Shown here: one piece after another, positions 1-11,974 of the stretch | Layout of the letters: each line of letters begins with the position of its first letter | Numbering within the stretch: position 1 is the first letter of the stretch | DNA from: a virus | Lineage: Duplodnaviria; Heunggongvirae; Uroviricota; Caudoviricetes | Direction: 5' to 3' (one strand) | IMG/VR virus record: IMGVR_UViG_2698536454_000007 | Length of the DNA stretch: 38,464 nt | Notes under the pieces: generated by a model | Told to the model about the DNA's origin: nothing | The model's database searches: none | The model's input: only the letters and a program-made list of their open reading frames with translations | Position numbers and translations under genes: made by a program

Positions 1-487
1 TGGCGTTAACTTCTGGCATTTTCATCAACGCTTCAACGATATGTCCGTCGAATGTTGCCATGTCTTCCTGCAACAATTCCTGTGCGCTAATCACCATATC
101 AACGGTGATGTTTTCACATGTGTCGAACTTAACCATGACAGCGTTCTGTACTTCAGGGGCCAGCTTGTCAAAAGTGACGTTCATCGGATCGGATTCAGTC
201 TCAACCGGGACAAAGGAAGCAGACTCCTCATCCCAGCGGTTTTCCTGCATATATTCAGCATCCCAGGAATCGAGGGCAGGGCGGGGTATGCCGGGTTTAT
301 CCTCACAGACAATAAATTTATAAGCGCAGTCCTGAGCTGCAGGGAATTGCTCCAGAAATTGCCAATGAAATTTTGCGCGTGCGCGACGCTCATCACCAGC
401 TTCAATGGCAGTGGCCACCGCAACAGCGCTATCTTCTTTTATGGCCTGTTCATCAGGAATAGCAGCGCAAATAAAGACTTTACTCAT
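1..487 (-). CDS. YdfE-like prophage protein, N-terminal part; the gene runs off the left edge of the window
   Basis: Minus-strand ATG at 487..485 preceded by GAGGTAA Shine-Dalgarno; frame stays open to position 1 (MSKVFICAAIPDEQAIKEDSAVAVATAIEAGDERRARAKFHWQFLEQ...). It is the last gene of the dicB-type operon by position. Product assignment is by synteny and recollection only. Confidence 0.5.
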   Translation of the reverse strand, partial: MSKVFICAAIPDEQAIKEDSAVAVATAIEAGDERRARAKFHWQFLEQFPAAQDCAYKFIVCEDKPGIPRPALDSWDAEYMQENRWDEESASFVPVETESDPMNVTFDKLAPEVQNAVMVKFDTCENITVDMVISAQELLQEDMATFDGHIVEALMKMPEVNA

Positions 488-579
488 TTTGTTTTACCTC
501 ATTACAGATTTAAGGGTGAACAAATCCCTGCCATTGCTGGCATATAAGAATGAAACCGGATGTTTATTACGGAACTGTT

Positions 580-771
580 TTAAAGACCTGCCGGGATTTC
601 GTTATTATCCTGGTGAATAACTTTATCGACCGGGTAACAGTTACCGGGAATTTTCCGTTCGGTTGCTGCAGTCACACACTCCTGCATTGTCCTGTGAACA
701 CTGACTGCAATATCAACTGGCTCTCCGGAAACAAGAAAAACTGTCAGAACAAGTGCAAATGCTGTATTCAT
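580..771 (-). CDS. ydfD: YdfD-like small protein (63 aa) with hydrophobic N-terminus; the Qin homologue is reported to cause lysis
   Basis: ATG at 771..769 overlaps the dicB stop in an ATGA arrangement (translational coupling). Product MNTAFALVLTVFLVSGEPVD..., 63 aa, same length and position as ydfD downstream of dicB in Qin. Confidence 0.6.
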   Translation of the reverse strand: MNTAFALVLTVFLVSGEPVDIAVSVHRTMQECVTAATERKIPGNCYPVDKVIHQDNNEIPAGL

Positions 772-956
772 TGCCAGCATCCTTTTTGTATCGGACGTAA
801 ACGGGCCAGCATTGAAAGAATGCATATTTTATTTAATAGCTCCCGTTCGTGTTTTCTCTTGTTAATGGCATCTTCAGTAAATACAGGGTTACTGATAGTG
901 ACACCAATTTCAAAACAACCTTCAGACGTATTAACGTTTGGTAATAACGTTTCCAT
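768..956 (-). CDS. dicB: Cell division inhibitor DicB (62 aa)
   Basis: ATG at 956 with GAGGA Shine-Dalgarno 7 nt upstream. Product METLLPNVNTSEGCFEIGVTISNPVFTEDAINKRKHERELLNKICILSMLARLRPIQKGCWQ matches my recollection of E. coli DicB, and it sits immediately downstream of DicF. Confidence 0.8.
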   Translation of the reverse strand: METLLPNVNTSEGCFEIGVTISNPVFTEDAINKRKHERELLNKICILSMLARLRPIQKGCWQ

Positions 957-1130
957 TATCGCGTCCTCAACAATGAATTTTGTGATGTGGTGCCTGGTGC
1001 CTCCAGGTGACGTTAACCAGTTAACAATTAACGCCGGATACAGAGAATCCACCCATAACACTGTTTTTGGTTTTAACTGTTCCGCGTGCGCTCAGCCGCA
1101 TTCACCGCATCACAAAATTCACTTTAAAAA

Positions 1131-1183
1131 CGGCGGCAGAGCAGTCACGGAGTAAAACTGATACCGCCAAACGTCACCAGAAA
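1131..1183 (-). ncRNA. dicF: DicF small regulatory RNA (about 53 nt, processed from the dicB operon transcript)
   Basis: Reverse complement of 1131-1183 reads TTTCTGGTGACGTTTGGCGGTATCAGTTTTACTCCGTGACTGCTCTGCCGCCG followed by TTTTT, matching the DicF sequence as I recall it at 52 of 53 positions. It lies between ydfC-like and dicB as in Qin. Ends are approximate. Confidence 0.7.
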
Positions 1184-1523
1184 ATTGATAACAGAGGGCG
1201 TTGCAGCGGGGTTGTCGCTTAAGCGTATGGTCAACCTGACAACCCGGTGTCCTCAACGGGGAAGGAATAACCCCGCCATACTTACCGCCGCGCCATTTCG
1301 CGGAGTGCCACAACCGGAAGCGCACGGTCGACGAAAATTTAACGACAGGCTATCTATGAACCAGCTACCTCGCCGTGCGCTTTCGCGTTATGGTCTGACT
1401 TTTCATGGAAATATCCTTTCAGTAAACTGTCAGTGCCGGATGCTCACCCATGTCCGGCGCACGCACTCCACCTCACCCGTGGAGAACTCCTTAATTACCA
1501 ACCTTAGCTTCGTTGGTTAGCTA

Positions 1524-1742
1524 TTAACGCGGGTATGTAATCATTCTGGCAATGCTTAATGCCGCTGCTTTTTCCAGCCTGGTGATATCCTGCTCCAGAG
1601 CGGACAGATTTTCAGCCTGCTTAGCCCTGGCTTCATTGGCCCATTTCAGATCCTGCGCTGCATTAATTTTCTGGCGCATCCACTCATAAAGTTCATCATC
1701 GGTATAGTCTGGCGAGATGATGACGGGTTCTCGTTTCTGCAT
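1524..1742 (-). CDS. YdfC-like small prophage protein (72 aa)
   Basis: ATG at 1742 with AGGA Shine-Dalgarno 6 nt upstream; third gene of a tightly packed leftward operon; size and order match Qin ydfC. Confidence 0.6.
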   Translation of the reverse strand: MQKREPVIISPDYTDDELYEWMRQKINAAQDLKWANEARAKQAENLSALEQDITRLEKAAALSIARMITYPR

Positions 1743-1771
1743 ACTGATTCCTCGCGGTGCTGCTTCGCTTA

Positions 1772-1900
1772 TCAGCCGTTAGATTTTGCCGAGCTGGAAA
1801 GCGCCTGTTTAAACTCACTGAAGCTGAGAGCTTCTTCGCCTTCGGCAAGGCCTTCGAAGTATTCTTCGTAAGCCTTTTCCATGATTGTGTCGAAATCCAT
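1772..1900 (-). CDS. YdfB-like small acidic protein (42 aa)
   Basis: ATG at 1900, one base after the upstream gene's TGA stop (TGAtATG). Product MDFDTIMEKAYEEYFEGLAEGEEALSFSEFKQALSSSAKSNG. Below the 60-aa cutoff of the ORF track; found by manual translation. Confidence 0.55.
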   Translation of the reverse strand: MDFDTIMEKAYEEYFEGLAEGEEALSFSEFKQALSSSAKSNG

Positions 1901-1901
1901 A

Positions 1902-2057
1902 TCACTCACCTGAGTTTCTTTCCAGCCAGCGACGGGCACCATTTTCGGTTTTAAACGTTTTGCTTCTGGTATACGTCATCGCGGTAAACGTGCCGTCCTG
2001 GTTGGGAAACACGCCGCATACCAGAGATTCGTTGTTGCCAAGATCGATAGTATTCAT
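1902..2057 (-). CDS. YdfA-like small prophage protein (51 aa; the DUF1391 family name is recalled, not verified)
   Basis: ATG at 2057 with GAGG Shine-Dalgarno 5-6 nt upstream. Product MNTIDLGNNESLVCGVFPNQDGTFTAMTYTRSKTFKTENGARRWLERNSGE. First gene downstream of the operator palindrome. Confidence 0.6.
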   Translation of the reverse strand: MNTIDLGNNESLVCGVFPNQDGTFTAMTYTRSKTFKTENGARRWLERNSGE

Positions 2058-2145
2058 GCTGACCTCATTTCCCCTTAACGCCGGGGTAGCGGAACTGTTT
2101 GCTGAGAACACCGTGCGGTGTCTTGGTGGAGATTAATTTAGAATA

Positions 2146-2192
2146 ACCTAACAAATGTGGCAAGTATTTTTGTTAGATTGATCTAACAAAAA
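2146..2192. promoter_or_regulatory. Operator/promoter region of the leftward dicB-type operon: perfect palindrome TTGTTAGAT-TG-ATCTAACAA plus a CCTAACAAA half-site
   Basis: The 9-bp inverted repeat at 2171-2190 is seen directly; a related half-site lies at 2147-2155. It sits between the repressor gene's stop and the first operon gene. Confidence 0.55.
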
Positions 2193-2224
2193 GAGTGAGG
2201 GAATCTAAGTATCTGAAAGGAGTG

Positions 2225-2632
2225 TTATTTTATTGATTTGTTTTTACGTGCTTTAAGCATTTCTTCGAAGAGTTTATTGAAATTCTCTACTCTTGCGCGC
2301 ATTTCAGACAGTAAGGCTTCCTGCTCGGAGGAGGGAAGAGCATCGAATAATTCGATCAATTCTTTGTGGCTGGGAGTTAACTCGGTTTCCACATGAAGTT
2401 CTTGTGCTGGCACTGGTGCCTTGTCTTCGTCACCAAACATTAGCCATGTAGGCGAGCACTTCAGCGCATCAGCTAAAGCAAATAACCGCTTCCCGACCGG
2501 TTGGGTTTCGTCTCTTTCCCATTGTGAAATTGTGACGTGAGCTACCCCAGCGAGGCGTGCAGCTTCTCGTTGTGTTAGGCGTAATTCTTTTCGTCGTGCC
2601 AGAACTCGCTGGCCTAGGGTTCTTGTATCCAT
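2225..2632 (-). CDS. dicA: DicA-like prophage repressor, XRE-family HTH, 135 aa, no LexA-like cleavage domain
   Basis: N-terminal HTH (LTQREAARLAGVAHVTISQWERDETQP) and a C-terminal region ...LFALADALKCSPTWLMFGDEDK...ELIELFDALPSSEQEALLSEMRARVENFNKLFEEMLKAR that closely matches recalled DicA. Divergent from a Cro-like gene. No obvious Shine-Dalgarno upstream. Confidence 0.85.
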   Translation of the reverse strand: MDTRTLGQRVLARRKELRLTQREAARLAGVAHVTISQWERDETQPVGKRLFALADALKCSPTWLMFGDEDKAPVPAQELHVETELTPSHKELIELFDALPSSEQEALLSEMRARVENFNKLFEEMLKARKNKSIK

Positions 2633-2681
2633 AGTTAGGTAATTCTAATTTTTCTTGACTTAGGTATCCCGCGCACATTGC

Positions 2682-2699
2682 TGTTAGGAATATCTAACA
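2682..2699. promoter_or_regulatory. Operator in the divergent dicA/dicC intergenic region (TGTTAGG-AAT-ATCTAACA)
   Basis: Imperfect palindrome sharing the TGTTAG/CTAACA half-sites with the 2171-2190 operator; located between the divergent start codons at 2632 and 2713. Confidence 0.5.
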
Positions 2700-2712
2700 A
2701 GAGGGGGCTTTG

Positions 2713-2940
2713 ATGCTTAAAGTTGACGCAATTACTTTTTTTGGCAGCAAAACAAAACTTGCCAATGCCGCAGGAGTGAAACTGGCAAGTGTTGCTGCAT
2801 GGGGGGAACTGGTTCCTGAAGGTCGCGCGATGCGCCTGCAAGAGGCATCCGGCGGGGAACTTCAGTACGACCCCAAAGTTTATGACGAATATCGTAAGGC
2901 AAAGCGGGCGGGGCGGTTGAACAATGAAAATCACCCCTGA
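2713..2940 (+). CDS. dicC: DicC-like Cro-type regulator (75 aa)
   Basis: ATG at 2713 with GAGGGGG Shine-Dalgarno 5 nt upstream. Product MLKVDAITFFGSKTKLANAAGVKLASVAAWGELVPEGRAMRLQEASGGELQYDPKVYDEYRKAKRAGRLNNENHP resembles recalled DicC. The ORF-track entry at 2710 is a TTG-extended version. Confidence 0.75.
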   Translation: MLKVDAITFFGSKTKLANAAGVKLASVAAWGELVPEGRAMRLQEASGGELQYDPKVYDEYRKAKRAGRLNNENHP

Positions 2941-3445
2941 ACAGGTTTGTGAGGCTCTGGATGCCTGGGTATGCCGACCAGGAATGACACAGGAGCAGGC
3001 GACGATATTAATCACGGAAGCATTCTGGGCTCTGAAAGAACGCCCGAACATCGATGTTCAACGCGTCACGTTTAATGATGGCGAGGTTGATCAACGGGCG
3101 TTGGGCGTTAACCGGGTGAAGATATTCGAACGCTGGAAAGCTATCGACACCAGGGATAAGCGGGAAAAATTCACGGCGCTGATTCCGGCAATTATGGAGG
3201 CTATCCGGATCAGCGATTTCAGGTTGTATTGTGAAATTACTGACGGAAAAAGCATTACGTACATGATCGCCGGGTTAAACAAAGAATATGGTGATGTGGT
3301 GGAGTCCGGGCTGCTTTTTGCGGATCCATCTGTTGTGGAACGTGAGACTGACGAGCTTATAGAAAAAGCTATTGCTTTCAAGCATGCGTATCGTCAGCAA
3401 TACCAACAAAAAGCTGGATGGAATTATGAGCCTTCTTTTTGCTGA
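2924..3445 (+). CDS. YdaT-like early regulatory protein (173 aa); function tentative
   Basis: Second gene of the rightward operon, overlapping the Cro-like stop; position corresponds to ydaT after ydaS in Rac-type prophages. Weak Shine-Dalgarno. Confidence 0.45.
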   Translation: MKITPEQVCEALDAWVCRPGMTQEQATILITEAFWALKERPNIDVQRVTFNDGEVDQRALGVNRVKIFERWKAIDTRDKREKFTALIPAIMEAIRISDFRLYCEITDGKSITYMIAGLNKEYGDVVESGLLFADPSVVERETDELIEKAIAFKHAYRQQYQQKAGWNYEPSFC

Positions 3446-4391
3446 ACGCCCACTGGTTATAAACACACAGCTTGCGATGAAGATTGGCTTAAATGAAGCC
3501 ATTGTGTTGCAGCAGTTGCATTACTGGTTGAGAGATACCAGTTCCGGTATGGAATGTGACGGGGTTCGCTGGATTTATAACACAACAGAACAATGGCTGG
3601 AACAGTTCCCGTTCTGGTCAGAGTCAACGTTAAAACGCGCATTTGCAAGTCTGAAAACGCTGGGGCTTTTGCGTTGCGAAAAGCTCAACAAATCAAAGCG
3701 TGATATGACTAATTTTTACACGATTAATTACGAGAGTGAGCTTTTAGATGGTGGCAAAGTGAGCGAATCCATCAGGTCAAAATGCGCCGCTCCATCGGGT
3801 CAAAATGACACGATGGAAGAGGTCAAAATGGCACGCTCCATTGGTTCAAAACGACCCAATGTCATCGGGTCAAAATGGCCTGATGATCTTACAGAGAATA
3901 CAACAGAGATTACTACAGAGAATAAAAACACTTCTCGTCCGGAAGCTTCGCAACCGGACCCGCAGACGGCTGAACAGGATTTTTTAACCCGACACCCTGA
4001 CGCGGTTGTGTTCAGTGCGAAAAAACGCCAGTGGGGAAGTCAGGAAGATTTGGCGTGCGCACAGTGGATCTGGGGACGAATCGTGAGTCTTTACGAGCAG
4101 GCTGCCAGCGATGATGGCGAGATCACGCGACCGAAAGAACCAAACTGGACCGCATGGGCCAATGACGTGCGCACAATGCGGATGCTGGATGGCAGAAGCC
4201 ACAGACAAATTTGCGAAATGTTTGGTCGGGTACAGCGAGATCCATTCTGGGTAAAAAACATCATGAGCCCGTCAAAGCTTCGCGAAAAATGGGACGACCT
4301 GGTCATCCGCCTGGGGCGTTCACCTGTACAGTGTTGTGTGAATCATATTTCTGAACCGGATACCGAAATTCCGCCTGGTTTCAGGGGATAA
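3426..4391 (+). CDS. Replication initiator (replisome-organizer / O-like protein) with the origin iterons inside the gene
   Basis: N-terminal winged-helix-like region (LVINTQLAMKIGLNEAIVLQQLHYWL...) typical of phage replisome organizers; five direct repeats lie within its linker-coding region. The start is ambiguous (ATG 3426 versus ATG 3384 or TTG 3372). Confidence 0.75.
   Translation: MSLLFAERPLVINTQLAMKIGLNEAIVLQQLHYWLRDTSSGMECDGVRWIYNTTEQWLEQFPFWSESTLKRAFASLKTLGLLRCEKLNKSKRDMTNFYTINYESELLDGGKVSESIRSKCAAPSGQNDTMEEVKMARSIGSKRPNVIGSKWPDDLTENTTEITTENKNTSRPEASQPDPQTAEQDFLTRHPDAVVFSAKKRQWGSQEDLACAQWIWGRIVSLYEQAASDDGEITRPKEPNWTAWANDVRTMRMLDGRSHRQICEMFGRVQRDPFWVKNIMSPSKLREKWDDLVIRLGRSPVQCCVNHISEPDTEIPPGFRG
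3768..3877. repeat. Putative replication origin: five ~23-bp iterons (core GGTCAAAATG) followed by an A-rich repeated segment
   Basis: Direct repeats TCCATCAGGTCAAAATG (3768), TCCATCGGGTCAAAATG (3791), AGAGGTCAAAATG (3818), TCCATTGGTTCAAAACG (3837), GTCATCGGGTCAAAATG (3861), then ACAGAGAATA repeats at 3891-3925. Lambda likewise has its ori iterons inside O. Confidence 0.7.
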
Positions 4392-4431
4392 GTGGTGATT
4401 TTAGGGCATAAAGTAATGTTCAGGAGGACTT

Positions 4432-4839
4432 ATGGCAAAAGTATTTACACAGGAAGAGCGGGAAAAAATTAAAGGACAGGTGGTGGAACTCGTGCGCCAG
4501 AGCGGTCGTGAGACGTTACGGCAACTGGAAGCTAAAACAGGTGCGACAAGATATCTGATGAGCGTTCTTGCCAGAGAGCTGGTTGCCAGTGGTGATGTAT
4601 ATCACTCTGGCTATGGGGTGTTCCCGTCAGAACGGGCTCGTAAGGACTGGCAAAACGCCCGCAAAAAACTCTCGAGGGCAAAGGTGAAGAAACCTGTTGT
4701 GGTTGATCCGGGCCTTATCTGGACATTACCCGACGGAGAAATACGCCGCTACGACAGGCGTATGAACATAATCTGTCGCGAGTGCCGGAAGAGCGAAGTT
4801 ATGCAGCGTGTATTGGCGTTCTATCAGGGATATGCCTAG
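4432..4839 (+). CDS. Hypothetical protein (135 aa), basic, possibly DNA-binding
   Basis: Strong AGGAGG Shine-Dalgarno 6 nt before ATG 4432; base composition like the phage backbone; no family recognised. Confidence 0.6.
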   Translation: MAKVFTQEEREKIKGQVVELVRQSGRETLRQLEAKTGATRYLMSVLARELVASGDVYHSGYGVFPSERARKDWQNARKKLSRAKVKKPVVVDPGLIWTLPDGEIRRYDRRMNIICRECRKSEVMQRVLAFYQGYA

Positions 4840-5207
4840 AATTGTCACAGGTAATGAAATTAAAGAGTATTGGTTCGGATATGAATTGACATTTTCGCGG
4901 CACAGAGCTAAAAATAGCCTACTTGTTGGTTTTGTGTGAAAAGCAGACATTTTGAGGCTCAGGATTTGTTATCAAATAAGACCAATACTTATCTATATTA
5001 ATACACATTAAATACTGTGCAATACATTATTACATTTTATTAGATAAGCGATATTTAGGGAAAAGAAAAGTCATAGAAAACAGGCCGCTATTTGTTGTTG
5101 GATTTTATAGGCTATATCTAGATTATCTTGCCACTGCGGTCTCTGTTTACCTAACAGCTTGGGCTTCTTTGCATGCAAGTTTGTAATAACAAGAGTAATC
5201 AAACGGA

Positions 5208-6239
5208 ATGTCTATTAATCCTAAACTTAAGCGTATCGCGCGACGCTATCCAGCGTTATTCCAATATGAGTCCCCCTATATGGCAAGAAAATTAATAATA
5301 TTCGGCAACGGTCTCGGTATGGCTTTAGATCCTGCTCACTTCTCCTTAGACAGAGCGTTGGAAGAAATTTGGCATCGCCCCAATTTTTTAAAAGATATCC
5401 ACAAGCAACTTATCGAGCGTTGTCTTCAGCGGCAAGGTCCACCAGAAGGAGAACATGAGTTGGATACCCTTCACCAGGCTGTCACATATTGTAAAGCTCT
5501 TGCTCAAATTGGAGAGGGGAACGTGCATTGGCTTACTGAAGATGGACTAAACTTCCCCAAAATTACCGCCACTTATATTCACAAAGTTGCAACCAGGTTG
5601 CATAATTACGATAAAGGTTTGCCACAAAGATTCGAAAATGCGCTTGTGGAGTTTGTAAAGAACACACACTCACATATCGCGACATTAAACTATGACAAAT
5701 TATTATACAATTCATTCATAGATAATGATATATTCAACGGGTATGATGGGGTTTTAGTTGATGGGATGCTAAGCCACGGATTTTCCTCTGCAGCGCTCGA
5801 ACGGAAATACAATCGTAGGTTTGGTTATTATTTGCACTTGCATGGTTCACCACTATTTATTAATCAGCATGAAAATGTTTTAAAACTTTCACGCTCACAA
5901 CTTACTCTTGACATAGATGAACCTAGTGAGCATATAGTGTTAACTCATATAAAAAGAAAACCGTCAGTTATAGCAGCATCTAATGTTCTTTCTACGTACT
6001 GGGATTATTTGCAGTTTGCATTATTTGAATCAGAAGAAATAATATTGTTTGGTTACTCTGGTCTCGATATTCACCTTAACCTGCTTATTCGACCTTACCT
6101 AACCTCTAAGCCTTTAAGAGTAATTGAGTGGAGCGGTGCTGGTGAACAAAACGCTCGTGAGATATATTGGAAAAACCAGTTGAGACGGGAAGTTACTGTA
6201 ATTAGGTTGGATAACATCACTGATTTTATTGATTGGTAG
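5208..6239 (+). CDS. Standalone SIR2-like (sirtuin-fold, predicted NAD-binding) protein, 343 aa; candidate anti-phage effector
   Basis: Motifs in sirtuin order: Gly-rich IIFGNGLGMA (res ~31-40), TLNYDKLL (compare sirtuin TQNIDxL), HLHGS (catalytic-His HG motif), ILFGYSGLD (GYS/GTS motif). The gene and its flanks are visibly AT-rich relative to neighbours. Weak Shine-Dalgarno (ACGGA). Confidence 0.65.
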   Translation: MSINPKLKRIARRYPALFQYESPYMARKLIIFGNGLGMALDPAHFSLDRALEEIWHRPNFLKDIHKQLIERCLQRQGPPEGEHELDTLHQAVTYCKALAQIGEGNVHWLTEDGLNFPKITATYIHKVATRLHNYDKGLPQRFENALVEFVKNTHSHIATLNYDKLLYNSFIDNDIFNGYDGVLVDGMLSHGFSSAALERKYNRRFGYYLHLHGSPLFINQHENVLKLSRSQLTLDIDEPSEHIVLTHIKRKPSVIAASNVLSTYWDYLQFALFESEEIILFGYSGLDIHLNLLIRPYLTSKPLRVIEWSGAGEQNAREIYWKNQLRREVTVIRLDNITDFIDW

Positions 6240-6553
6240 CGCAATGCGAAGTTAAAGAGGCAGCCTCATATTTATCAGAGCTGGTGTACGTCCAATACAG
6301 GAGGTTATCGTGCTGGTTCTCAAATGCGCGCTGGCTATTGCGGCTGTAGTGGCAATTTATTGTCTTGCTATTGTTCTTATGGATCGCCTTTCTGATTGAT
6401 TTTATATTGGCGAGGTGACGGGAGTTAAGTAGAATTGCTGCGGGTGCTTGAGGCTGTCTGCCTCGGGCATGCCACCGTAAGGCAGACAGAGAAAAGCCCC
6501 AGTTAACATTACGCGTCCTGCAAGACGCTTAACATTAATCTGAGGCCCAATCT

Positions 6554-6766
6554 ATGCTTCACAAACGTAGGTTAGCCTCTTACGCGCCGAAAGGCAAGGA
6601 GAAGCAGGCTATGAAGCAGCAAAAGGCGATGTTAATCGCCCTGATCGTCATCTGTTTAACCGTCATAGTGACGGCACTGGTAACGAGGAAAGACCTCTGC
6701 GAGGTACGAATCCGAACCGGCCAGACGGAGGTCGCTGTCTTCACAGCTTACGAACCTGAGGAGTAA
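6554..6766 (+). CDS. mok: Mok-like reading frame, an in-frame N-terminal extension of hok (70 aa)
   Basis: ATG at 6554 with GAGG upstream; same frame and stop as hok, as in chromosomal mok/hok loci. Confidence 0.5.
   Translation: MLHKRRLASYAPKGKEKQAMKQQKAMLIALIVICLTVIVTALVTRKDLCEVRIRTGQTEVAVFTAYEPEE
6611..6766 (+). CDS. hok: Hok/Gef-family type I toxin (51 aa), HokD/RelF-like
   Basis: Product MKQQKAMLIALIVICLTVIVTALVTRKDLCEVRIRTGQTEVAVFTAYEPEE: a single transmembrane helix plus the conserved Hok C-terminal region; AGGAG upstream; fold-back stem (CTGTCTGCC...GGCAGACAG) in the 5' leader at 6457-6490. Confidence 0.85.
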   Translation: MKQQKAMLIALIVICLTVIVTALVTRKDLCEVRIRTGQTEVAVFTAYEPEE

Positions 6767-6834
6767 GAGACCAGGCGGGGGAGAAATCCCTCGCCACCGC
6801 TGATGTGTCAGGCATCCTCAACGCACCCGCACTT

Positions 6835-6866
6835 AACCCGCTTCGGCGGGTTTTTGTTTTTATTTT
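6835..6866 (+). terminator. Rho-independent terminator downstream of hok
   Basis: CCCGC-TTCG-GCGGG hairpin followed by TTTTTGTTTTTATTTT. Confidence 0.7.
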
Positions 6867-6982
6867 CAACGCATTTGAAGTTCTGGACGGTGTCGGAATA
6901 GAATCAAAAATACTTAAGTAGCGCGCAGGGATAAGAGGGATGGTCCCTTAAAGGGGAGAGCTAATTATCCGGAAGGATTCTG

Positions 6983-7234
6983 ATGATGAACATCGAAGAA
7001 CTGCGTAAAATTTTTTGTGAAGATGGCCTCTATGCTGTGTGCGTTGAAAATGGAAATATTGTTAGTCATTACCGCATTGTGTGTTTGCGAAAGAATGGGG
7101 CTGCGTTAATTAATTTTGTGGATGGTCGAGTGACAGACGGATTTATCTTGCGCGAAGGTGAGTTTGTCACTTCATTACAGGCACTGAAAGAGATCGGAAT
7201 AAAAGCTGGCTTTTCTGCTTTTTCAGAAGAATAA
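6983..7234 (+). CDS. Rem-like small prophage protein (83 aa), function unknown
   Basis: GGAAGGA Shine-Dalgarno before ATG 6983; size and position (between hok and the DUF968 gene) match rem of Qin. Confidence 0.55.
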   Translation: MMNIEELRKIFCEDGLYAVCVENGNIVSHYRIVCLRKNGAALINFVDGRVTDGFILREGEFVTSLQALKEIGIKAGFSAFSEE

Positions 7235-7300
7235 ACTCATCTACAATCTTGCGCGGGGCTGAACTCCCGCTGAGTAACACCGTGCCGCCGGAGGAAACCG

Positions 7301-7579
7301 ATGGCACGCAACGCAAAATATTACAATCATGATAATTCGACCGTTCTTGCCCACACGCACGAGCGGTATTCTCACGCATTTAAGTCAGACTGGTACCAGC
7401 ATCCCCCATGCACTGAAGAACAGGCCGAATGGCTCATTCAGTGTTACCGCAGGCGCGGATGCGAGGTTAAAAAAGCCCTTAGCCTCGACTACCGTCACTG
7501 GATAATCTCCGTCGGGCTTCCTTACTCCGAACGCCCACCGCGTCTGTCCCGCACATTCCAGCAACGCATCTGGAGGTAA
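7301..7579 (+). CDS. Hypothetical protein (92 aa)
   Basis: GGAGGAAA Shine-Dalgarno 5 nt before ATG 7301; stop abuts the GTG start of the next gene. Confidence 0.55.
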   Translation: MARNAKYYNHDNSTVLAHTHERYSHAFKSDWYQHPPCTEEQAEWLIQCYRRRGCEVKKALSLDYRHWIISVGLPYSERPPRLSRTFQQRIWR

Positions 7580-7580
7580 C

Positions 7581-8630
7581 GTGCGGGTATTACTTCGACC
7601 TGTTCTGGTACCGGAACTCGGGCTGGTGGTCCTTAAGCCCGGTCGCGAATCACTGCCGGTTTTTCATTGCGGCAGGGTGCTGGTGGAGCCGGAACCGAAA
7701 AGCATGCGCGGTCTGCCGTCCGGAGTCGTCCCTGCCGTTCGCCAGCCGCTGGCGGAGGATAAATCATTACTGCCATTTTTCAGCGATGAGCGTGTGATTC
7801 GTGCTGCTGGCGGCGCTGGCGCACTGTCTGACTGGCTCCTGCGTCATGTCAAATCCTGCCAGTGGCCTCATGGTGACTACCATCACAGTGAAACCGTCAT
7901 ACATCGTTATGGTACCGGCGCAATGGTGTTGTGCTGGCACTGCGACAACCAGCTGCGCGACCAGACCTCCGAATCACTCGGGCAACTTGCTCACCAAAAC
8001 CTGTCTGCATGGATGATTGACGTCATACGCCATGCAATGAATGGCTCGCAGGAACGGGAATTATCGCTGGCTGAATTATCCTGGTGGGCGATCCGCAATC
8101 AGGTGGCGGACGCGCTACCGGAAGCGGTATTACGTCGTTCGCTGGGGTTGCGTGCGGAAAAAATCCGCTCAATGTACCGTGAAAGCGACATCGTACCGGG
8201 AGAGCAGACCGCCACCAGCATACTGAAACAGCGCACAAAAAATCTTGCGCCGCTGCCTCACGCCCACCAGCAACAGAACCCGCCACAGGAAAAGACGGTG
8301 GTCAGCATTGCTGTTGATCCGGAGTCTCCGGAATCTTTAATGAAGCGACCTAAACGTCGCCGTTGGGTAAATGAGAAATATACGCGCTGGGTAAAGACAC
8401 AGCCGTGTGCGTGTTGTGGTAAGCCAGCCGACGATCCCCATCACCTGATTGGTCATGGTCAGGGCGGAATAGGGACAAAAGCCCACGATATTTTCACGCT
8501 ACCGTTGTGCCGGGAGCATCACAACGAACTTCATGCTGATCCGCTGGCATTTGAAGAAAAGCATGGTTCCCAGATTGATTTAATTTTTCGTTTTCTTGAT
8601 CGCGCCTTTGCAACCGGCGTGCTCGGGTAA
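7581..8630 (+). CDS. DUF968-family protein (YdfU-like, 349 aa) with a C-terminal Cys/His-rich HNH-like motif
   Basis: GTG start with GGAGG 5 nt upstream; C-terminal CACCGKPADDPHHLIGHGQGG...LCREHHNELH; size and synteny match ydfU. Confidence 0.75.
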   Translation: MRVLLRPVLVPELGLVVLKPGRESLPVFHCGRVLVEPEPKSMRGLPSGVVPAVRQPLAEDKSLLPFFSDERVIRAAGGAGALSDWLLRHVKSCQWPHGDYHHSETVIHRYGTGAMVLCWHCDNQLRDQTSESLGQLAHQNLSAWMIDVIRHAMNGSQERELSLAELSWWAIRNQVADALPEAVLRRSLGLRAEKIRSMYRESDIVPGEQTATSILKQRTKNLAPLPHAHQQQNPPQEKTVVSIAVDPESPESLMKRPKRRRWVNEKYTRWVKTQPCACCGKPADDPHHLIGHGQGGIGTKAHDIFTLPLCREHHNELHADPLAFEEKHGSQIDLIFRFLDRAFATGVLG

Positions 8631-8642
8631 AAGAGGTTACTG

Positions 8643-9002
8643 ATGCGTATAGAGTTTGTTTTGCCTTACCCGCCGACGGTGAACACCTACTGGCGACGTC
8701 GTGGCAGCACATATTTTGTGTCAAAAGCCGGTGAGCGTTATCGCCGGGATGTGGCACTTATTGTTCGCCAGCAGCGGCTGAAATTAAACCTGTCCGGAAG
8801 GCTGGCGATAAAGATTATTGCAGAGCCACCGGATAAGCGCCGCCGCGACCTGGACAATATCCTGAAGGCACCACTGGATGCGCTTACGCATGCCGGACTA
8901 CTTATAGACGACGAGCAGTTTGATGAAATCAATATTGTGCGCGGTCAGCTCGTTTCTGGTGGGCGGCTGGGCGTGAAGATTTACAAAATTGAAAGTGAGT
9001 GA
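8643..9002 (+). CDS. rusA: Holliday junction resolvase RusA
   Basis: 119 aa; motifs PPTVNTYW and RRRDLDNILKAPLDALT are characteristic of RusA; AAGAGG Shine-Dalgarno. Confidence 0.85.
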   Translation: MRIEFVLPYPPTVNTYWRRRGSTYFVSKAGERYRRDVALIVRQQRLKLNLSGRLAIKIIAEPPDKRRRDLDNILKAPLDALTHAGLLIDDEQFDEINIVRGQLVSGGRLGVKIYKIESE

Positions 9003-9010
9003 GCATAAAT

Positions 9011-9565
9011 ATGATATACCCGGAAATTACAGGCAAAAGCGGTGAGCATTTACGCCTGAAAACGCTGGAAAGTGTCTGGATCCAGGGGAAACTGCGTATG
9101 TGGGGGCGTTGGTCGTATATTGGCGACGGTAAGACGGGAAATATGTTCAACCAATTACTGATCTCTAAAAAGCTGACAAAAACGGCAATTAACGAGGCGC
9201 TCCGGAGGATGAAAAAAGCGGGTCTGGACAAACCTGAACTTGAGGCTTTTTTGCGGGATATGATCAACGGCAATCAAAAAAGCTGGCTGGCACATTGTAC
9301 CGATTCAGAGGCGTTAATAATCGACAGGGTTATTGGTGAAGTACTGGCAGGTTATCCCGGGCTGCTCAATGTTCTGAGTCAGCGTTATGTGGGGCGGGGG
9401 ATGACTAAGCGCAAAATGGCTGAACTGCTGAATGATGCACATCCGGAATGGAGTTTAAGAACCTGTGAAAGACGCATTGAGCATTGGCTAAAGGTGGCAG
9501 AATTTATTTTGTACAAACCAATGGTTATGGCTTTTGGTATAGAGAAAAAAGTTATTGCTTTTTGA
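9011..9565 (+). CDS. Late-gene antiterminator Q-like protein
   Basis: Position (after rusA, immediately before an intrinsic terminator and the late-operon cargo and lysis genes) is the canonical Q slot; family assignment is by synteny. Alternative GTG start at 8999. Confidence 0.55.
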   Translation: MIYPEITGKSGEHLRLKTLESVWIQGKLRMWGRWSYIGDGKTGNMFNQLLISKKLTKTAINEALRRMKKAGLDKPELEAFLRDMINGNQKSWLAHCTDSEALIIDRVIGEVLAGYPGLLNVLSQRYVGRGMTKRKMAELLNDAHPEWSLRTCERRIEHWLKVAEFILYKPMVMAFGIEKKVIAF

Positions 9566-9642
9566 CGTAAAAACTGCTTCAATTCCGGTAAGCTTCGCAA
9601 AGCTGTACCGCGAGGCGAATAGCAGACATGGACATTTGAAAG

Positions 9643-9667
9643 AGCCCGCTTTTTGCGGGTTTTTTTA
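9643..9667 (+). terminator. Intrinsic terminator downstream of Q (tR'-like); the late promoter presumably lies in 9566-9640
   Basis: GCCCGC-TTTTT-GCGGG hairpin followed by a run of 7 T. The promoter itself is not resolved. Confidence 0.65.
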
Positions 9668-9987
9668 TGACTGAAAAACGGCACGGGGCGTTAAACGCGC
9701 TGGTGGTTGCTAATACCGGTCTTTCAACTTGCTGGCTTTTTCGACAAGAGTTATTGGTATGTCACGTTAACCGGAAAATGGAAAAAGGCATGCTAAAACA
9801 GCAGGATATGACCGAAACCGCCAGAGTGGTGTTTAATGAATTAAGCGTCACCGAACCGGCGACCGCCGGGGAAATTGCGCAGAACACTTATCTTTCACGC
9901 GAACGCTGCCAGTTAATACTGACCCAGCTTGTTATGGCGGGTCTGGCAGATTATCAGTTCGGTTGTTACAGACGCCTTCCTCAGTGA
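9667..9987 (+). CDS. Small putative winged-helix DNA-binding protein; start codon uncertain (9667, 9778 or 9790)
   Basis: C-terminal part ATAGEIAQNTYLSRERCQLILTQLVMAGLA looks like an HTH; none of the candidate starts has a good Shine-Dalgarno. Confidence 0.35.
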   Translation: MTEKRHGALNALVVANTGLSTCWLFRQELLVCHVNRKMEKGMLKQQDMTETARVVFNELSVTEPATAGEIAQNTYLSRERCQLILTQLVMAGLADYQFGCYRRLPQ

Positions 9988-10137
9988 AGGCTTTTTTATT
10001 TGTGGTAATGGGCGGCTGGTGGGTGTTAGCGGCACCTGCCAGCCATCTGCTCATGCGTTGGGGTCACAAGCAAACCTCAGGCCCATCTGCTTTGCGCAAA
10101 AGCGGTATGAGCCTATCAGAGAAGTGCTTATTGATCT

Positions 10138-11196
10138 ATGGCTAATACTGTAAAAATATCCAGTTGTGAGTTAATCAACGCTGATTGCCTGGAATTTATC
10201 CAGACCTTACCGGAAAACTCTGTCGATCTGATAGTCACAGACCCGCCATACTTTAAAGTGAAGCCCGAGGGCTGGGATAACCAGTGGAAGGGCGACGATG
10301 ATTACCTGAAGTGGCTGGACCAGTGTCTGGCGCAGTTCTGGCGGGTGCTGAAACCTGCCGGAAGTCTTTACCTGTTCTGTGGTCATCGCCTGGCATCTGA
10401 TATCGAAATCATGATGCGTGAACGCTTCAGTGTGCTGAACCATATTATCTGGGCGAAGCCGTCCGGACGCTGGAACGGATGCAACAAGGAAAGCCTGCGG
10501 GCGTATTTCCCCGCCACAGAGCGCATTCTGTTCGCGGAACATTATCAGGGGCCGTATCGTCCGAAAGATGCCGGGTATGCGGCGAAGGGCAGTGCACTGA
10601 AACAGCATGTGATGGCCCCGCTGATTTCTTACTTTCGTGATGCGCGCGCGGCCCTGGGGATAACGGCAAAACAGATTGCAGATGCCACAGGAAAGAAAAA
10701 CATGGTGTCGCACTGGTTCAGTGCCAGTCAGTGGCAGCTACCGAACGAAAGCGATTATCTGAAATTACAGTCGCTGTTTGCCCGGGTGGCAGAAGAGAAA
10801 CATCAGCGGGGAGAACTGGAAAAGTCCCATTACCAACTGGTCAGCACATACAGTGAGCTGAACCGGCAGTATATGGAACTGCTGAGTGAATATAAGCATC
10901 TGCGGCGGTATTTTGGCGTGACGGTGCAGGTGCCGTATACCGATGTGTGGACGCATAAACCGGTGCAGTTCTATCCCGGGAAACATCCGTGCGAAAAACC
11001 GGCAGAAATGCTGCAGCAGATAATCAGCGCTAGCAGTCGTCCGGGTGACCTGATTGCAGATTTTTTCATGGGGTCGGGTTCGACAGTGAAAGCGGCACTG
11101 GCGCTCGGGCGTCGTGCAATTGGCGTTGAGCTGGAGACTGAACGTTTTGAGCAGACGGTTCGGGAAGTACAGGATTTAGTCAGCCAGAACGGATGA
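10138..11196 (+). CDS. Orphan DNA N6-adenine methyltransferase, beta class (DPPY before FxGxG)
   Basis: Motif IV VTDPPY near the N-terminus and motif I FFMGSGST near the C-terminus; no endonuclease gene adjacent. Confidence 0.85.
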   Translation: MANTVKISSCELINADCLEFIQTLPENSVDLIVTDPPYFKVKPEGWDNQWKGDDDYLKWLDQCLAQFWRVLKPAGSLYLFCGHRLASDIEIMMRERFSVLNHIIWAKPSGRWNGCNKESLRAYFPATERILFAEHYQGPYRPKDAGYAAKGSALKQHVMAPLISYFRDARAALGITAKQIADATGKKNMVSHWFSASQWQLPNESDYLKLQSLFARVAEEKHQRGELEKSHYQLVSTYSELNRQYMELLSEYKHLRRYFGVTVQVPYTDVWTHKPVQFYPGKHPCEKPAEMLQQIISASSRPGDLIADFFMGSGSTVKAALALGRRAIGVELETERFEQTVREVQDLVSQNG

Positions 11197-11236
11197 TATT
11201 GAAGAATTAATTACGCGTCGTTATTATGCGGCTCCC

Positions 11237-11312
11237 GGCCCTTTAGCTCAGTGGTGAGAGCGAGCGACTCATAATCGCCAGGTCGCTGGTTCAAATCCAG
11301 CAAGGGCCACCA
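11237..11312 (+). tRNA. ileZ: tRNA with CAU anticodon (Met or lysidine-modified Ile2; ileZ-like)
   Basis: Cloverleaf: acceptor GGCCCTT/AAGGGCC, D-arm AGCTCAGTGGTGAGAGC, anticodon loop CTCATAA, T-arm GGTTCAAATCC, 3' CCA. Confidence 0.85.
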
Positions 11313-11319
11313 TCACATA

Positions 11320-11396
11320 CCGCTATTAGCTCATCAGGAAAGAGCGCCAGCCTTCGAAGCTGGCTGCGCGGGGTTCAAGTCCCCGATGGCGGTCCA
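11320..11396 (+). tRNA. argN: tRNA-Arg (anticodon UCG)
   Basis: Acceptor CCGCTAT/ATGGCGG, anticodon stem-loop GCCAG-CCTTCGAA-CTGGC, T-arm GGTTCAAGTCC, CCA end. Confidence 0.85.
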
Positions 11397-11409
11397 TTAT
11401 CTGCATCAT

Positions 11410-11486
11410 GCGTTGTTAGCTCAGCCGGACAGAGCAATTGCCTTCTAAGCAATCGGTCACTGGTTCGAATCCAGTACAACGCGCCA
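11410..11486 (+). tRNA. argO: tRNA-Arg (anticodon UCU, reads AGA)
   Basis: Acceptor GCGTTGT/ACAACGC, anticodon loop CCTTCTAAG, T-arm GGTTCGAATCC, CCA end. Confidence 0.85.
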
Positions 11487-11502
11487 CACTTATTTTCCCT
11501 GG

Positions 11503-11529
11503 CTCGCTTTTGCGGGCTTTTTTTTAAAT
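11503..11529 (+). terminator. Terminator after the tRNA cluster
   Basis: CTCGC-TTTT-GCGGG hairpin followed by CTTTTTTTTT. Confidence 0.6.
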
Positions 11530-11974
11530 GTCTCACAATTCAGACGGTTGACAGTTGTCTGTTTTGCGGGGAGTTTGTTAAAAGAAACTGGCATGGTGAA
11601 TCCCCCTGTGCGGAGGGGCAATCAGCGAGTAGGTATATGGGATAATCGCGGATTCAGGTGCTGGTACTGAATTCACCGGGAGGCACCCGGCACCATGCAA
11701 TGGCACATAGCGCCACTCTCCAGCCCCTCTCCGGAGGGGCTTTCTTATGGACAAAAAAAGCCCGCGCTGGGAGACGCGGGCGGCAAGGAATAAACAACAA
11801 AACGTGAAGTAATATTTCAGCTGGCGAATAATATCCGACAGTAATCACTCTGCGCAATAGCGCGGCCTTTTTCGTATTGCGGGCTGTTGTCTCTCTTCTG
11901 CCATTGTCCTGTAACTTCCGGACTTCAGCCCGCTCCTCATTTTACTCACAATATTATCCCGGCCGGGAGGATTC

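Follow-up and report, generated by a model that had tools for sequence, protein, structure and literature searches.

The interval from the DUF977 stop codon to the hok reading frame is very probably a hotspot for accessory genes in lambdoid phages of the Qin/Rac/mEp460 type, and there is strong support that the DUF977-hok junction is a real swap point for defence genes. In the window, by which we mean the whole stretch of 38,464 nucleotides analysed here (IMG/VR record IMGVR_UViG_2698536454_000007), this interval holds a stand-alone SIR2-like gene. This occupant is a rare one; the prophage defence hotspot as a type is known. Taken as a whole, a hotspot carrying the SIR2 cassette as a single-gene anti-phage effector is the best explanation of the data, and we consider it probable.

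Gene order and composition around the slot

The prophage is an E. coli lambdoid element of the Qin/Rac/mEp460 type. Its genes follow the order O-like replication gene, DUF977/YdaW, SIR2-like gene, mok/hok, rem, DUF968, RusA and Q (Table 1). An earlier note on this DNA had read the order as replication, SIR2-like, hok, rem, DUF968 and Q side, and this was borne out by the ORF, Pfam, Rfam and RefSeq annotation. Windowed composition likewise agreed with the description of the slot as AT-rich, with 34-40% GC in the slot interval compared to ~50% in the flanks and 38.6% over the DUF977-to-hok gap.

Both anchors of the interval are well conserved. The DUF977 gene occurs at 6012 places, spread over 4016 of the 5426 E. 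coli genomes, and its identity was 83-100% beside every cargo type. The right anchor is a hok/sok type I toxin-antitoxin locus, comprising the Hok peptide, the overlapping mok frame and the sok antisense region. The Rfam sok model (RF01794) was matched over its full length at 6442-6616 with 116 bits, and the hok region is kept at ~79-96% identity across cargo types. Further to the right, rem is missing or swapped in several relatives (L005-L008, L108 and L112), marking a second indel point at 6861-7291.

Table 1. Features of the DUF977-hok region, in window positions
Feature	Position	Strand	Remarks
Replication O-like gene	3372/3426-4391		
DUF977/YdaW ('LygF') gene	4432-4839	+	Pfam DUF977 E=1.7e-29; last gene of the replication module, left anchor
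Left linker, semi-conserved, non-coding	4840-4951	+	TTGACA 4886-4891 invariant; promoter-like -10 ending 4915
Exchangeable cassette, 1.3 kb, 39% GC	4952-6256	+	AT-rich leader and SIR2-like gene
Stand-alone SIR2-like gene	5280-6239	+	319 aa; ORF also open from 5208, 343 aa
Start of right linker, common breakpoint 6257	6257-6309	+	Homology resumes after several unrelated cargos
29-aa hydrophobic small ORF, unannotated, conserved	6310-6399	+	AGGAGG, then GTG start
hok mRNA leader with sok antisense region and promoter-like site	6407-6616	+	Promoter-like site 6407-6435, TTGGCG-17-TAGAAT
mok overlapping hok	6554-6766 (mok), 6611-6766 (hok)	+	Type I toxin; Pfam HOK_GEF E=3e-23; RefSeq annotation hokD
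Terminator-like hairpin	6835-6852	+	7-bp stem, 5 GC pairs, then T-run; 3' end of hok transcript
rem	6983-7234	+	Annotated 'protein Rem'
DUF968 (YdfU-like) gene	7581-8630	+	Pfam DUF968 E=2e-75; Q-side backbone

The slot carries many different cargos

We surveyed 88 related loci anchored on the DUF977 gene, a sample biased to close relatives of the window's DUF977 allele. hok was found downstream in 66 of them, separated from DUF977 by 928-4131 bp and in 23 configurations; beyond these, there were three further arrangements from E. coli genomes and three hok-less types. No empty slot was seen in the DUF977-anchored survey. The commonest occupant was QueH (28 of the 66 loci), and others were Kiwa, cII/Beta, ABC-3C, PDC-S33, BstA-like genes and unknowns. 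Relatives keeping both flanks hold QueH, an alpha/beta hydrolase, an Sll1717 ATPase or hypothetical proteins. Cargos may also be stacked, as in L113, which has QueH, Kiwa and relBE together.

At least 11 cargo types strongly match models of validated or candidate defence systems. These matches include Kiwa (KwaA, E=1e-101; KwaB, E=3e-159), PDC-S33 (E=5e-119), ABC-3C (PDC-M68B, E=1e-41), a cII-like gene accompanied by a Beta protein (E=2e-28) and BstA-like cargo (E=3e-21). Two deposited phage genomes have the slot occupied by PD-T7-1 (mEp460_ev081, E=4e-157) and PDC-S15 (Tritos, E=1e-98). In hok-less relatives, DUF977 is directly followed by IetA (E=9e-143) and IetS (E=3e-300) in nine loci, by type II restriction-modification in three, or by PDC-S39 (E=8e-103). 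The defence cargos have a GC content of 0.34-0.43, and some lie on the opposite strand. There are also unannotated occupants of 195 aa, 326 aa, 370+333 aa and NA37+410 aa; no NCBIfam model was found for the 195-aa, 326-aa and 370/333-aa cargos or for DUF977.

The whole query is held by only 41 of the 5426 E. coli genomes, and in others the two flanks enclose different genes. The SIR2 cassette itself is present in 46 of the 5426 complete E. coli genomes, 30 copies having at least 99% identity and 16 having ~87% over the whole span. All 46 are chromosomal, and none was found in the plasmid collection. Strains RM12579 and CB9615 (O55:H7) are among those with an identical SIR2-like protein.

The earlier note had proposed that this junction is a swap point for defence or addiction cargo. 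The conserved DUF977 and hok, the many cargos between them and the several matches to defence models uphold that proposal, and aligning related prophages revealed neither invariable SIR2 occupancy with backbone composition nor a different Qin order. The slot is not exclusively a defence site, because QueH and several arrangements of nin-like ORFs are unrecognisable as defence.

Limits of the cassette and its conserved linkers

The left linker is 72-88% identical to loci with QueH, Sll1717 ATPase, ABC-3C, PDC-S33, Kiwa and other cargo, and left-side homology to prophages with other cargo stops between 4894 and 4971. On the right, homology restarts sharply at 6257, at 6363-6377 or at 6420-6423, depending on the relative. 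The restart is exactly at 6257 in L003, L005, L010, L094, L095, L106, L108 and L109, and cargo junctions at 6363-6377, at 6420-6423 and, for Kiwa, at 6429-6470 point to the hok promoter/leader stretch as the putative right-hand recombination anchor. A second allele of the cassette, 87% identical, aligns over exactly 4952-6256, the positions at which we place the cassette limits.

The 29-aa ORF is unbroken in eight cargo contexts, where it shows conservative substitutions, and in L049 it has an in-frame 3-nt deletion. The 164-bp block holding this ORF occurs in 1363 of the 5426 E. coli genomes, and no annotation for the block was found in 25 matches sampled across the ranking. The ORF was considered as a partner of the SIR2-like gene and rejected, since it belongs to the right flank common to unrelated cargos. 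These comparisons redraw the slot borders of the earlier note. Its upstream flank of ~370 bp (4840-5207) is indeed AT-rich, but 4840-4951, including TTGACA, is backbone linker. Its downstream flank of ~310 bp proved to be conserved backbone, with the 29-aa ORF, the hok promoter/leader and sok at 6257-6553.

Two other candidate features were rejected. Repeats resembling transposon-like cassette ends were short, imperfect and probably due to chance, with no sign of transposition, and a structured RNA or terminator in the left linker had a weak consensus fold (-8.5 kcal/mol) with little covariation.

Transcription of the cassette

A promoter scan recovered the promoter-like element that had been noticed near 4886-4915, consisting of TTGACA at 4886-4891, an 18-nt spacer and AAAAAT ending at 4915, with 10 of 12 consensus matches. 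It is the joint best site in 4400-7300, a region with 15 such sites compared to 5.3 +/- 2.2 in shuffles. The TTGACA -35 is invariant among related loci, and the -10 is not conserved there. Between DUF977 and rem, the only clear terminator is the hairpin at 6835-6852; none was predicted from DUF977 to the SIR2-like gene or from there to hok. Neither a terminator nor a well-conserved -10 marks the cassette out as a separate unit of transcription. With no terminator separating it from DUF977, the SIR2-like gene may be expressed in lytic growth as part of the early rightward transcript.

The relBE block of Qin lies at a separate position

The Qin prophage of K-12 DH1 has the order relB-relE-hokD-rem-hyp-ydfU-ydfT, matching the order given in the earlier note (relB-relE-hokD-rem-ydfU). 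The claim built on it, that the SIR2-like gene replaces relBE at the same junction, is not correct. Both co-occur in strain KSC1031, in the order DUF977, SIR2 cassette, hok promoter/leader, IS remnant, ydfW, flxA, ydfV, relB, relE and hokD, and SIR2 and relBE are stacked in L110. The relBE block is inserted at the Shine-Dalgarno/start codon of hok (window ~6597-6612), ~350 bp to the right of SIR2, and is bordered by the 15-bp repeat GGAGAAGCAGGCTAT. Given these separate positions and the co-occurrence in KSC1031, the SIR2 cassette and the relBE block are not allelic.

Qin relBE-hokD (relBEF) shares the backbone of the window (dicA/dicC ... hokD-rem-ydfU-Q) and also has accessory toxin-antitoxin genes between the replication side and the hok reading frame. 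In contrast to the window, a relBE block with ydfW, flxA, ydfV and an IS remnant separates hok from its promoter, mok start and sok. In K-12 Qin, DUF977 and the replication genes are gone, and homology to the window begins only at 6597. A long-standing oddity of K-12 is thereby explained: insertion of the relBE-containing block at the ribosome-binding site left hokD (relF) without a promoter, a mok start or a sok of its own.

The SIR2-like protein has a SIR2 fold closest to that of SIR2-HerA

The SIR2-like protein is matched marginally by Pfam SIR2_2 (score 26.1 bits, cut-off 24.5 bits; E=1e-5). The N-terminal 24 codons of the longer frame have two synonymous and nine non-synonymous changes, and stops occur there in other genera. 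From this comparison of sequences, a start at 5280 rather than 5208 appears more likely, which would give an upstream untranslated stretch of ~440 bp. Comparison of the two E. coli alleles shows purifying selection on the core. An RNA structure in the 90-nt leader before the start was examined across genera and rejected (-3 kcal/mol, zero covariation).

An AlphaFold2 model (mean pLDDT 89.3) was compared with solved structures using Foldseek. The best match was the SIR2 protein of SIR2-HerA (E=7e-11, TM 0.58-0.62), with CobB and SIRT2 at E=1e-5 or worse; the probability given by Foldseek was 1.00 for these three and for the SPARSA SIR2. On the strength of the model, we are confident in assigning the protein a SIR2 Rossmann fold. 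A SIR2-family profile search against PDB sequences gave spurious matches only (E=0.15), and the relationship is visible by fold only. Among 30 homologues, the motifs GNGxG, TLNYD and HLHGSP are invariant or nearly so: N137 (TLNYD), H188 (HLHGSP), G11 and G13 are invariant, and at least 90% of the homologues share G9 and N10 of the GNGxG loop. From the resemblance of these motifs to those of ThsA and DSR2, we take N137 and H188 to be putative catalytic residues and GNGxG to be a putative NAD loop. The protein has just two cysteines, of which C71 alone is invariant, and the Cys4 zinc module of classical sirtuins is therefore absent.

Homologues form a compact stand-alone family of 355 clusters at 50% identity (from 1.84 billion representatives), nearly all of 310-360 aa. 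The N-terminal extensions of two longer homologues, P0042 and P0044, are without a Pfam domain. Homologue neighbourhoods in six genera revealed no conserved neighbour or partner gene, and no sensor was recognised for the protein. A Citrobacter homologue lies between a type II restriction-modification system and Hachiman, a Serratia homologue adjoins SoFic, and a Vibrio homologue is in an integron cassette array with CcdAB. Many homologues bear the Pfam DUF4917 mark. Some in Aeromonas and Klebsiella are found among housekeeping genes.

PADLOC matches of the protein are weak (E=4e-6 to 4e-4), placing it outside every modelled defence system, and no NCBIfam model was found for it. SIR2-HerA (Nezha) comes closest: its SIR2 protein matches the fold over nearly the whole length, including a helical insertion, and shares a SIR2_2-type Rossmann domain without the zinc module. 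However, sequence identity is ~15%, the PADLOC SIR2 model gives E=6e-5, and no HerA-like gene was found in the window slot or beside homologues in the six genera. Thoeris ThsA, DSR1/DSR2 and SIR2-APAZ (SPARSA) have a SIR2 catalytic domain too, and the motifs of the window protein resemble their Asn- and His-containing motifs. As reported for all three, SIR2 activity depletes NAD+ and leads to abortive infection. They differ from the window protein in architecture. ThsA has a SLOG domain and a TIR-domain ThsB neighbour, whereas the window protein is a single domain of 319 aa; Thoeris is absent from its PADLOC matches, and no TIR neighbour was found in the window or in the homologue neighbourhoods examined. 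DSR1/DSR2 have a large C-terminal sensor and exceed 1000 aa, compared to 319-343 aa here. The APAZ/Argonaute neighbour of SPARSA is missing here, and PADLOC Aga_SIR2 matches at E=4e-6 with partial coverage. Classical sirtuin deacylases (CobB, SIRT) differ in that the Cys4 zinc-binding module is theirs only.

Discussion

The DUF977-hok locus shows conserved flanks, diverse content and known anti-phage occupants, three of the features by which hotspots are recognised. It resembles the defence hotspots of P2-like phages and P4-like satellites (Rousset et al. 2022, PMC9122126; Vassallo et al. 2022, PMC9519451) in that conserved core genes surround a short locus whose content varies between similar elements, known and candidate anti-phage systems are abundant and mostly of one or two genes, and the cargo is GC-poor, with its size constrained by packaging. 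It differs in belonging to a lambdoid element of the Qin/Rac/mEp460 type with DUF977 (YdaW) and hok/sok as anchors, and in its several nested junctions, stacked cargos and frequent non-defence occupants (QueH, nin-like ORFs). In the literature searched, no account of this locus turned up, although an earlier one may exist.

In lambda, the counterpart of the interval is the beginning of the nin region. As with lambdoid morons and nin genes (lambda ren and nin genes; HK97 and HK022 morons), the cassette is of foreign composition among early genes, and such extra genes sit past the replication genes, flanked by conserved early genes. A classical moron carries its own promoter and its own terminator. 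For the cassette, no terminator is predicted before hok, and the promoter-like site in the shared linker is only a consensus match.

Shared breakpoints suggest how the hotspot may work. Self-contained cassettes would be gained, lost and stacked, the likely route being homologous recombination via short conserved sequences. Homology on the left would be provided by the 3' end of DUF977 and the ~100-bp linker, and on the right by the small-ORF block and the hok promoter/leader, giving several nested junctions at window positions 4950, 6257, ~6370, ~6430-6470 and ~6600. Ordinary lambdoid mosaicism, with DUF977-to-Q as an analogue of the nin region, a mosaic stretch in every lambdoid phage, under generic shuffling and no special link to defence, could account for QueH as the most frequent occupant, for at least eight configurations of small nin-like ORFs (DUF4406, DUF551, methyltransferase and Mom-like genes) at a backbone-like GC of 0.46-0.49, for hok and rem being optional as well, and for the replacement of a wider interval, to 7291 or 9010, in some relatives. 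We nevertheless regard it as unlikely: it sits poorly with the at least 11 cargo types strongly matching defence models, with their low GC and partly opposite orientation, and with the common conserved linkers and sharp 6257 breakpoint of the cassette-type cargos.

As to the occupant of the window, the balance tips modestly towards a defence gene. The SIR2-like protein would then be a prophage-borne single-gene effector, presumably expressed in the lysogen. Upon infection, it would hydrolyse NAD+ and abort the infection, as other defence SIR2 proteins do; by this analogy, NAD+ depletion is a plausible predicted mechanism, though we put it at slightly less than an even chance. Quite improbable is a role in lysogenic conversion or host interaction as a deacylase or ADP-ribosyltransferase, similar to SliP of Campylobacter jejuni, a reported secreted sirtuin-like deacetylase (PMC10421069). 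SliP is a DUF4917 protein, the mark is shared by many homologues, and the housekeeping-gene context of some in Aeromonas and Klebsiella would also fit such a role. However, the Cys4 zinc module is missing from a protein with two cysteines, the solved structure nearest in fold is the SIR2 of the SIR2-HerA defence system and not CobB/SIRT2 (7e-11 against 1e-5 or above), defence islands and an integron cassette array harbour homologues, and defence systems are among the other occupants of the slot. The least probable of the alternatives is that the gene serves the phage lytic cycle or counter-defence, acting on NAD+ or nucleotide signals after expression in the early rightward operon. The gene shares its strand with the early genes, neither the stretch from DUF977 to the gene nor that from the gene to hok has a predicted terminator, and the upstream -10 is not conserved in relatives, but homologues in other genera are chromosomal and non-prophage, in defence islands or integron arrays, and the phage group can do without the gene, which few of its members carry.

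Beyond the single-gene effector at a hotspot, we tentatively put forward three linked readings, which jointly are rather less likely than not to hold: a solo SIR2 system, an unexploited lambdoid counterpart of the P2 and P4 hotspots and portable hok/sok homology. The 319-aa family could be a candidate anti-phage system of one gene, sensing infection and depleting NAD+ free of partners, and its cassette could have spread through prophages, defence islands and integrons. If the locus is such a counterpart, its unknown occupants (195 aa, 326 aa, 370+333 aa, NA37+410 aa and the Sll1717 ATPase) would be new defence genes, and the multi-copy hok/sok leader could act as portable homology moving cargo between prophages.

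Roughly three in four complete E. coli genomes carry DUF977-type lambdoid prophages. With at least 11 defence systems, recognised or candidate, found at its anchors, the DUF977-hok locus lends itself to the search for new ones, as the P2 and P4 hotspots were mined in like manner, and several of its unannotated occupants are direct candidates for defence function. If active, the stand-alone SIR2-like protein would mean that the HerA-associated structural type of SIR2 effector is able to act alone.

The DUF977-hok interval is a variable cargo slot

Window 1-12000 covers the early-right arm of a lambdoid prophage of Qin/Rac type and includes a complete hok/sok/mok locus. The order described in the earlier note, from replication through the SIR2-like gene, hok, rem and DUF968 to the Q side, was recovered, as was the Qin order given there (K-12 DH1 has relB-relE-hokD-rem-hyp-ydfU-ydfT). 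Windowed composition likewise gave the expected low GC for the slot between the DUF977 (YdaW) gene and hok, 0.34-0.40 versus ~0.50. A 2.8 kb stretch of the window is 100% identical to E. coli strain 602687. The tRNA/STnc100/DUF6645 layout 3' of Q is similar to that at the stx position in Stx phages, without stx.

Features of the window, and cargo of related loci (L-numbers, own coordinates)
Feature	Location	Strand	Remarks
DicF	1131-1182	-	
cI-like repressor	2225-2632	-	
Cro-like, YdaT-like, O-like replication genes, in order	O-like end 4391		
DUF977/YdaW	4432-4839		
SIR2-like ORF	5208 or 5280 to 6239		
29-aa hydrophobic ORF MLVLKCALAIAAVVAIYCLAIVLMDRLSD	6310-6399	+	AGGAGG ribosome-binding site; directly upstream of hok promoter
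hok promoter-like site	6407-6435		
sok	6442-6616		Rfam
mok	6554-6766		
hok	6611-6766		
rem	6983-7234		
92-aa ORF	between rem and DUF968		
DUF968	7581-8630		
RusA, Q (DUF1133), DNA methyltransferase, in order	3' of DUF968		
tRNA genes (Ile, Arg, Arg) and sRNA STnc100 (11562-11752)	within 11237-13837		downstream of Q and methyltransferase
DUF6645 ORF, 620 aa	within 11237-13837		3' of tRNA genes/STnc100
Kiwa	after QueH		defence-model match: KwaA 1e-101, KwaB 3e-159
RelA/SpoT protein	slot		defence-model match: PDC-S33, 5e-119
cII-like + Beta protein	slot		defence-model match: 2e-28; PD-Lambda-2_C 1e-41
ABC-3C system	slot		defence-model match: PDC-M68B, 1e-41
KilA-N protein	slot		defence-model match: BstA C-terminal half, 3e-21
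IetAS	9 hok-less loci, e.g. L080 6626-10019		IetA 9e-143, IetS 3e-300
Type II restriction-modification pair	3 hok-less loci, e.g. L055 6817-9841		
PDC-S39	1 hok-less locus, L092 3106-4893		

The proposed variability of the slot was borne out by E. coli examples, in which both flanks are kept and different genes lie between them, and by a survey that used the DUF977 protein as anchor (80 IMG/VR and 8 GTDB loci). The E. coli examples contained an uncharacterized 195-aa protein, a P-loop ATPase of the Sll1717 family (495 aa), a pair of small ORFs, QueH, a series of small ORFs, or an alpha/beta hydrolase encoded on the other strand. In the survey, hok lies downstream in 66 loci, with DUF977-hok gaps of 928-4131 bp; these represent 23 sequence configurations, and E. 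coli genome examples add three. Several kinds of occupant match defence models strongly (table). The same frame holds PD-T7-1 (4e-157) in the deposited phage mEp460_ev081, PDC-S15 (1e-98) in Tritos, an HTH regulator and GNAT acetyltransferase in Evi, and a small methyltransferase gene with QueH in HannyBb. In 13 survey loci without hok, cargo directly follows DUF977 and the backbone restarts at window 7291 or 9010.

Part of the cargo is not defence. The commonest occupant is QueH (28/66 loci, including copies with IS insertions), and at least eight configurations consist of small nin-like ORFs with backbone-like GC. Cassette-type cargos have a GC of 0.34-0.43 and keep the conserved linkers; nin-like arrangements are without them. 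QueH is an epoxyqueuosine reductase (Pfam E=1e-65; L006 2101-2766 and 25 other loci). DUF977 plus linker was found in 4016 of 5426 complete E. coli genomes (6012 places), and the SIR2 cassette in 46 of the 5426, always chromosomal and one per genome; the plasmid collection had no copy of it.

Several related loci show further variation. A Qin remnant without DUF977 (L010) carries, upstream of hok, PD-T7-1 (17-1366, minus strand; E=7e-157) together with a 326-aa gene lacking annotation (2646-3626, plus strand). A second indel point lies right after the hok terminator (window 6861-7291; L005 3741-5163; L108 3422-5178; L112 7000-8734). Here rem is present, many relatives lack it, and others have a 204-216-aa protein and an HTH/ImmA-like protein in its place. 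Five DUF977 phage loci ~90% identical to E. coli ones (L092-L096) are assigned to metagenome-assembled genomes of Collinsella, Veillonella and Bacillota, and most likely represent E. coli phage contigs that were mis-binned.

The mobile unit is narrower than the interval

Homology to prophages with other cargo extends on the left to 4894-4971. On the right it restarts sharply at one of three places, 6257, 6363-6377 or 6420-6423. A second SIR2 cassette allele, ~87% identical, aligns over exactly 4952-6254. These limits define the mobile unit as 4952-6256, so that both flanks of the slot drawn previously (4840-6553) fall outside it. Transposon-like ends were looked for at the cassette and none were found.

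The predicted promoter-like element was found as TTGACA-18-AAAAAT at 4886-4915 (10/12 consensus matches, joint best in the region). The 112 bp carrying TTGACA are a shared linker, with the -35 invariant across eleven cargo contexts and the -10 not conserved. The ~310 bp downstream are backbone and no mere spacer, with a 29-aa ORF, a hok promoter-like site and the hok leader with sok. The ORF is intact in eight cargo contexts, including one where it has lost 3 nt in frame. The 164-bp block containing it occurs in 1363 of 5426 complete E. coli genomes, and the ORF was annotated in none of 25 matches sampled across the ranking of this block.

The SIR2-like gene probably starts at 5280. The 24 preceding codons show 2 synonymous versus 9 non-synonymous differences between the two alleles and 78% nucleotide identity, like the non-coding leader (core, 88-91%). 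Other genera have stop codons in the equivalent upstream frame, and two of them have a good ribosome-binding site at an MxRKL start.

relBE and Kiwa occupy nested junctions

The earlier note held that the SIR2-like gene replaces relBE at the same junction. Strain KSC1031 (L110) contradicts this: both coexist there, with relBE ~350 bp right of the SIR2 cassette. There, DUF977, the SIR2 cassette (87% allele), the right linker and the hok promoter and leader to window 6612 are followed by an IS remnant, ydfW, flxA, ydfV, relB, relE and hokD, with homology restarting at window 6597. The 15-bp repeat GGAGAAGCAGGCTAT, which covers the hok Shine-Dalgarno and the first two bases of the hok start codon, lies at both ends of the IS remnant-ydfW-flxA-ydfV-relBE block in Qin-type prophages (L110 6686-6760 and 9995-10070; L002, another related locus, 4930-5040). 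Together with the KSC1031 order, this indicates that the relBE block is an insertion into the hok leader, which explains why K-12 hokD has no promoter, mok start or sok of its own and why its homology starts only at window 6597.

A second Qin variant (L113, a Qin remnant) has the order QueH-KwaA-KwaB-IS-ydfW-flxA-ydfV-relBE, and its Kiwa cassette is found in 156 E. coli genomes. Each side of the cassette bears one incomplete copy of the hok 5' leader, corresponding to window 6429-6470 (flanks 3295-3388 and 5366-5549), which suggests recombination between hok loci. The relBE and Kiwa arrangements make the locus a zone of several nested junctions in which cargos stack.

Cargo exchange probably proceeds by homologous recombination through the flanks. 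This is suggested by the same cargo next to different replication modules and different cargo next to the same modules among fetched examples, by the sharp 6257 breakpoint common to many unrelated cargos, and by the duplicated hok-leader fragments around Kiwa. The query stretch matched a median of 2 and a maximum of 12 places per E. coli genome, most at its hok-rem end; hok is therefore likely multi-copy, which would supply ample homology for exchange.

The SIR2-like protein is a predicted single-gene effector

The SIR2-like protein marginally passed Pfam SIR2_2. Its PADLOC matches (Aga_SIR2, PDC-S21, SIR2) are weak, placing it in no modelled system. Homologues are abundant, with 794 matches, typically 319-323 aa and 56-99% identical among the 120 listed, in Enterobacteriaceae, Aeromonas, Vibrio, Pseudoalteromonas and others. 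Only 355 clusters, nearly all of 310-360 aa, came out of a profile search across 1.84 billion representatives; the proteins form a compact stand-alone family. The AlphaFold2 model was confident (pLDDT 89.3, pTM 0.89), and its best PDB fold matches were to the SIR2-HerA/Nezha SIR2 subunit (E=7e-11, TM 0.58-0.62, ~15% identity), with CobB, SIRT2 and SPARSA SIR2 ranking lower. N137 (TLNYD), H188 (HLHGSP), G11 and G13 are invariant in 30 homologues, and G9 and N10 are kept in at least 90% of them. Having only two cysteines, the protein has no zinc module.

No conserved partner gene was found beside homologues in six genera. In Citrobacter farmeri (L114 2682-12484) the homologue has a type II restriction-modification system on one side and Hachiman on the other, in an integrase-bounded island, in Serratia it adjoins SoFic, and in Vibrio parahaemolyticus (L117 5773-12858) it is a cassette in an integron-integrase array, with CcdAB adjacent and an Mrr_cat gene nearby. 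Domain, fold, motifs, the lack of a partner and this defence context lead us to predict a single-gene, NAD+-depleting abortive-infection effector. The protein could possibly be a deacylase like SliP (PMC10421069), or the gene could serve the phage's own lytic cycle or counter-defence; both are less well supported than an NAD+-depleting effector.

Defence hotspots are established in P2 phages, P4 satellites and other mobile elements (PMC9122126, PMC9519451), and Vassallo et al. note some systems in lambdoid prophages, with no locus defined (PMC9519451). The literature searched contained no paper on the DUF977-hok locus, although an earlier description is possible. Collectively, there is solid support for the DUF977-hok hotspot, and the SIR2-like gene is a plausible candidate single-gene defence system. 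The hotspot is conceptually no surprise, and is useful for mining.
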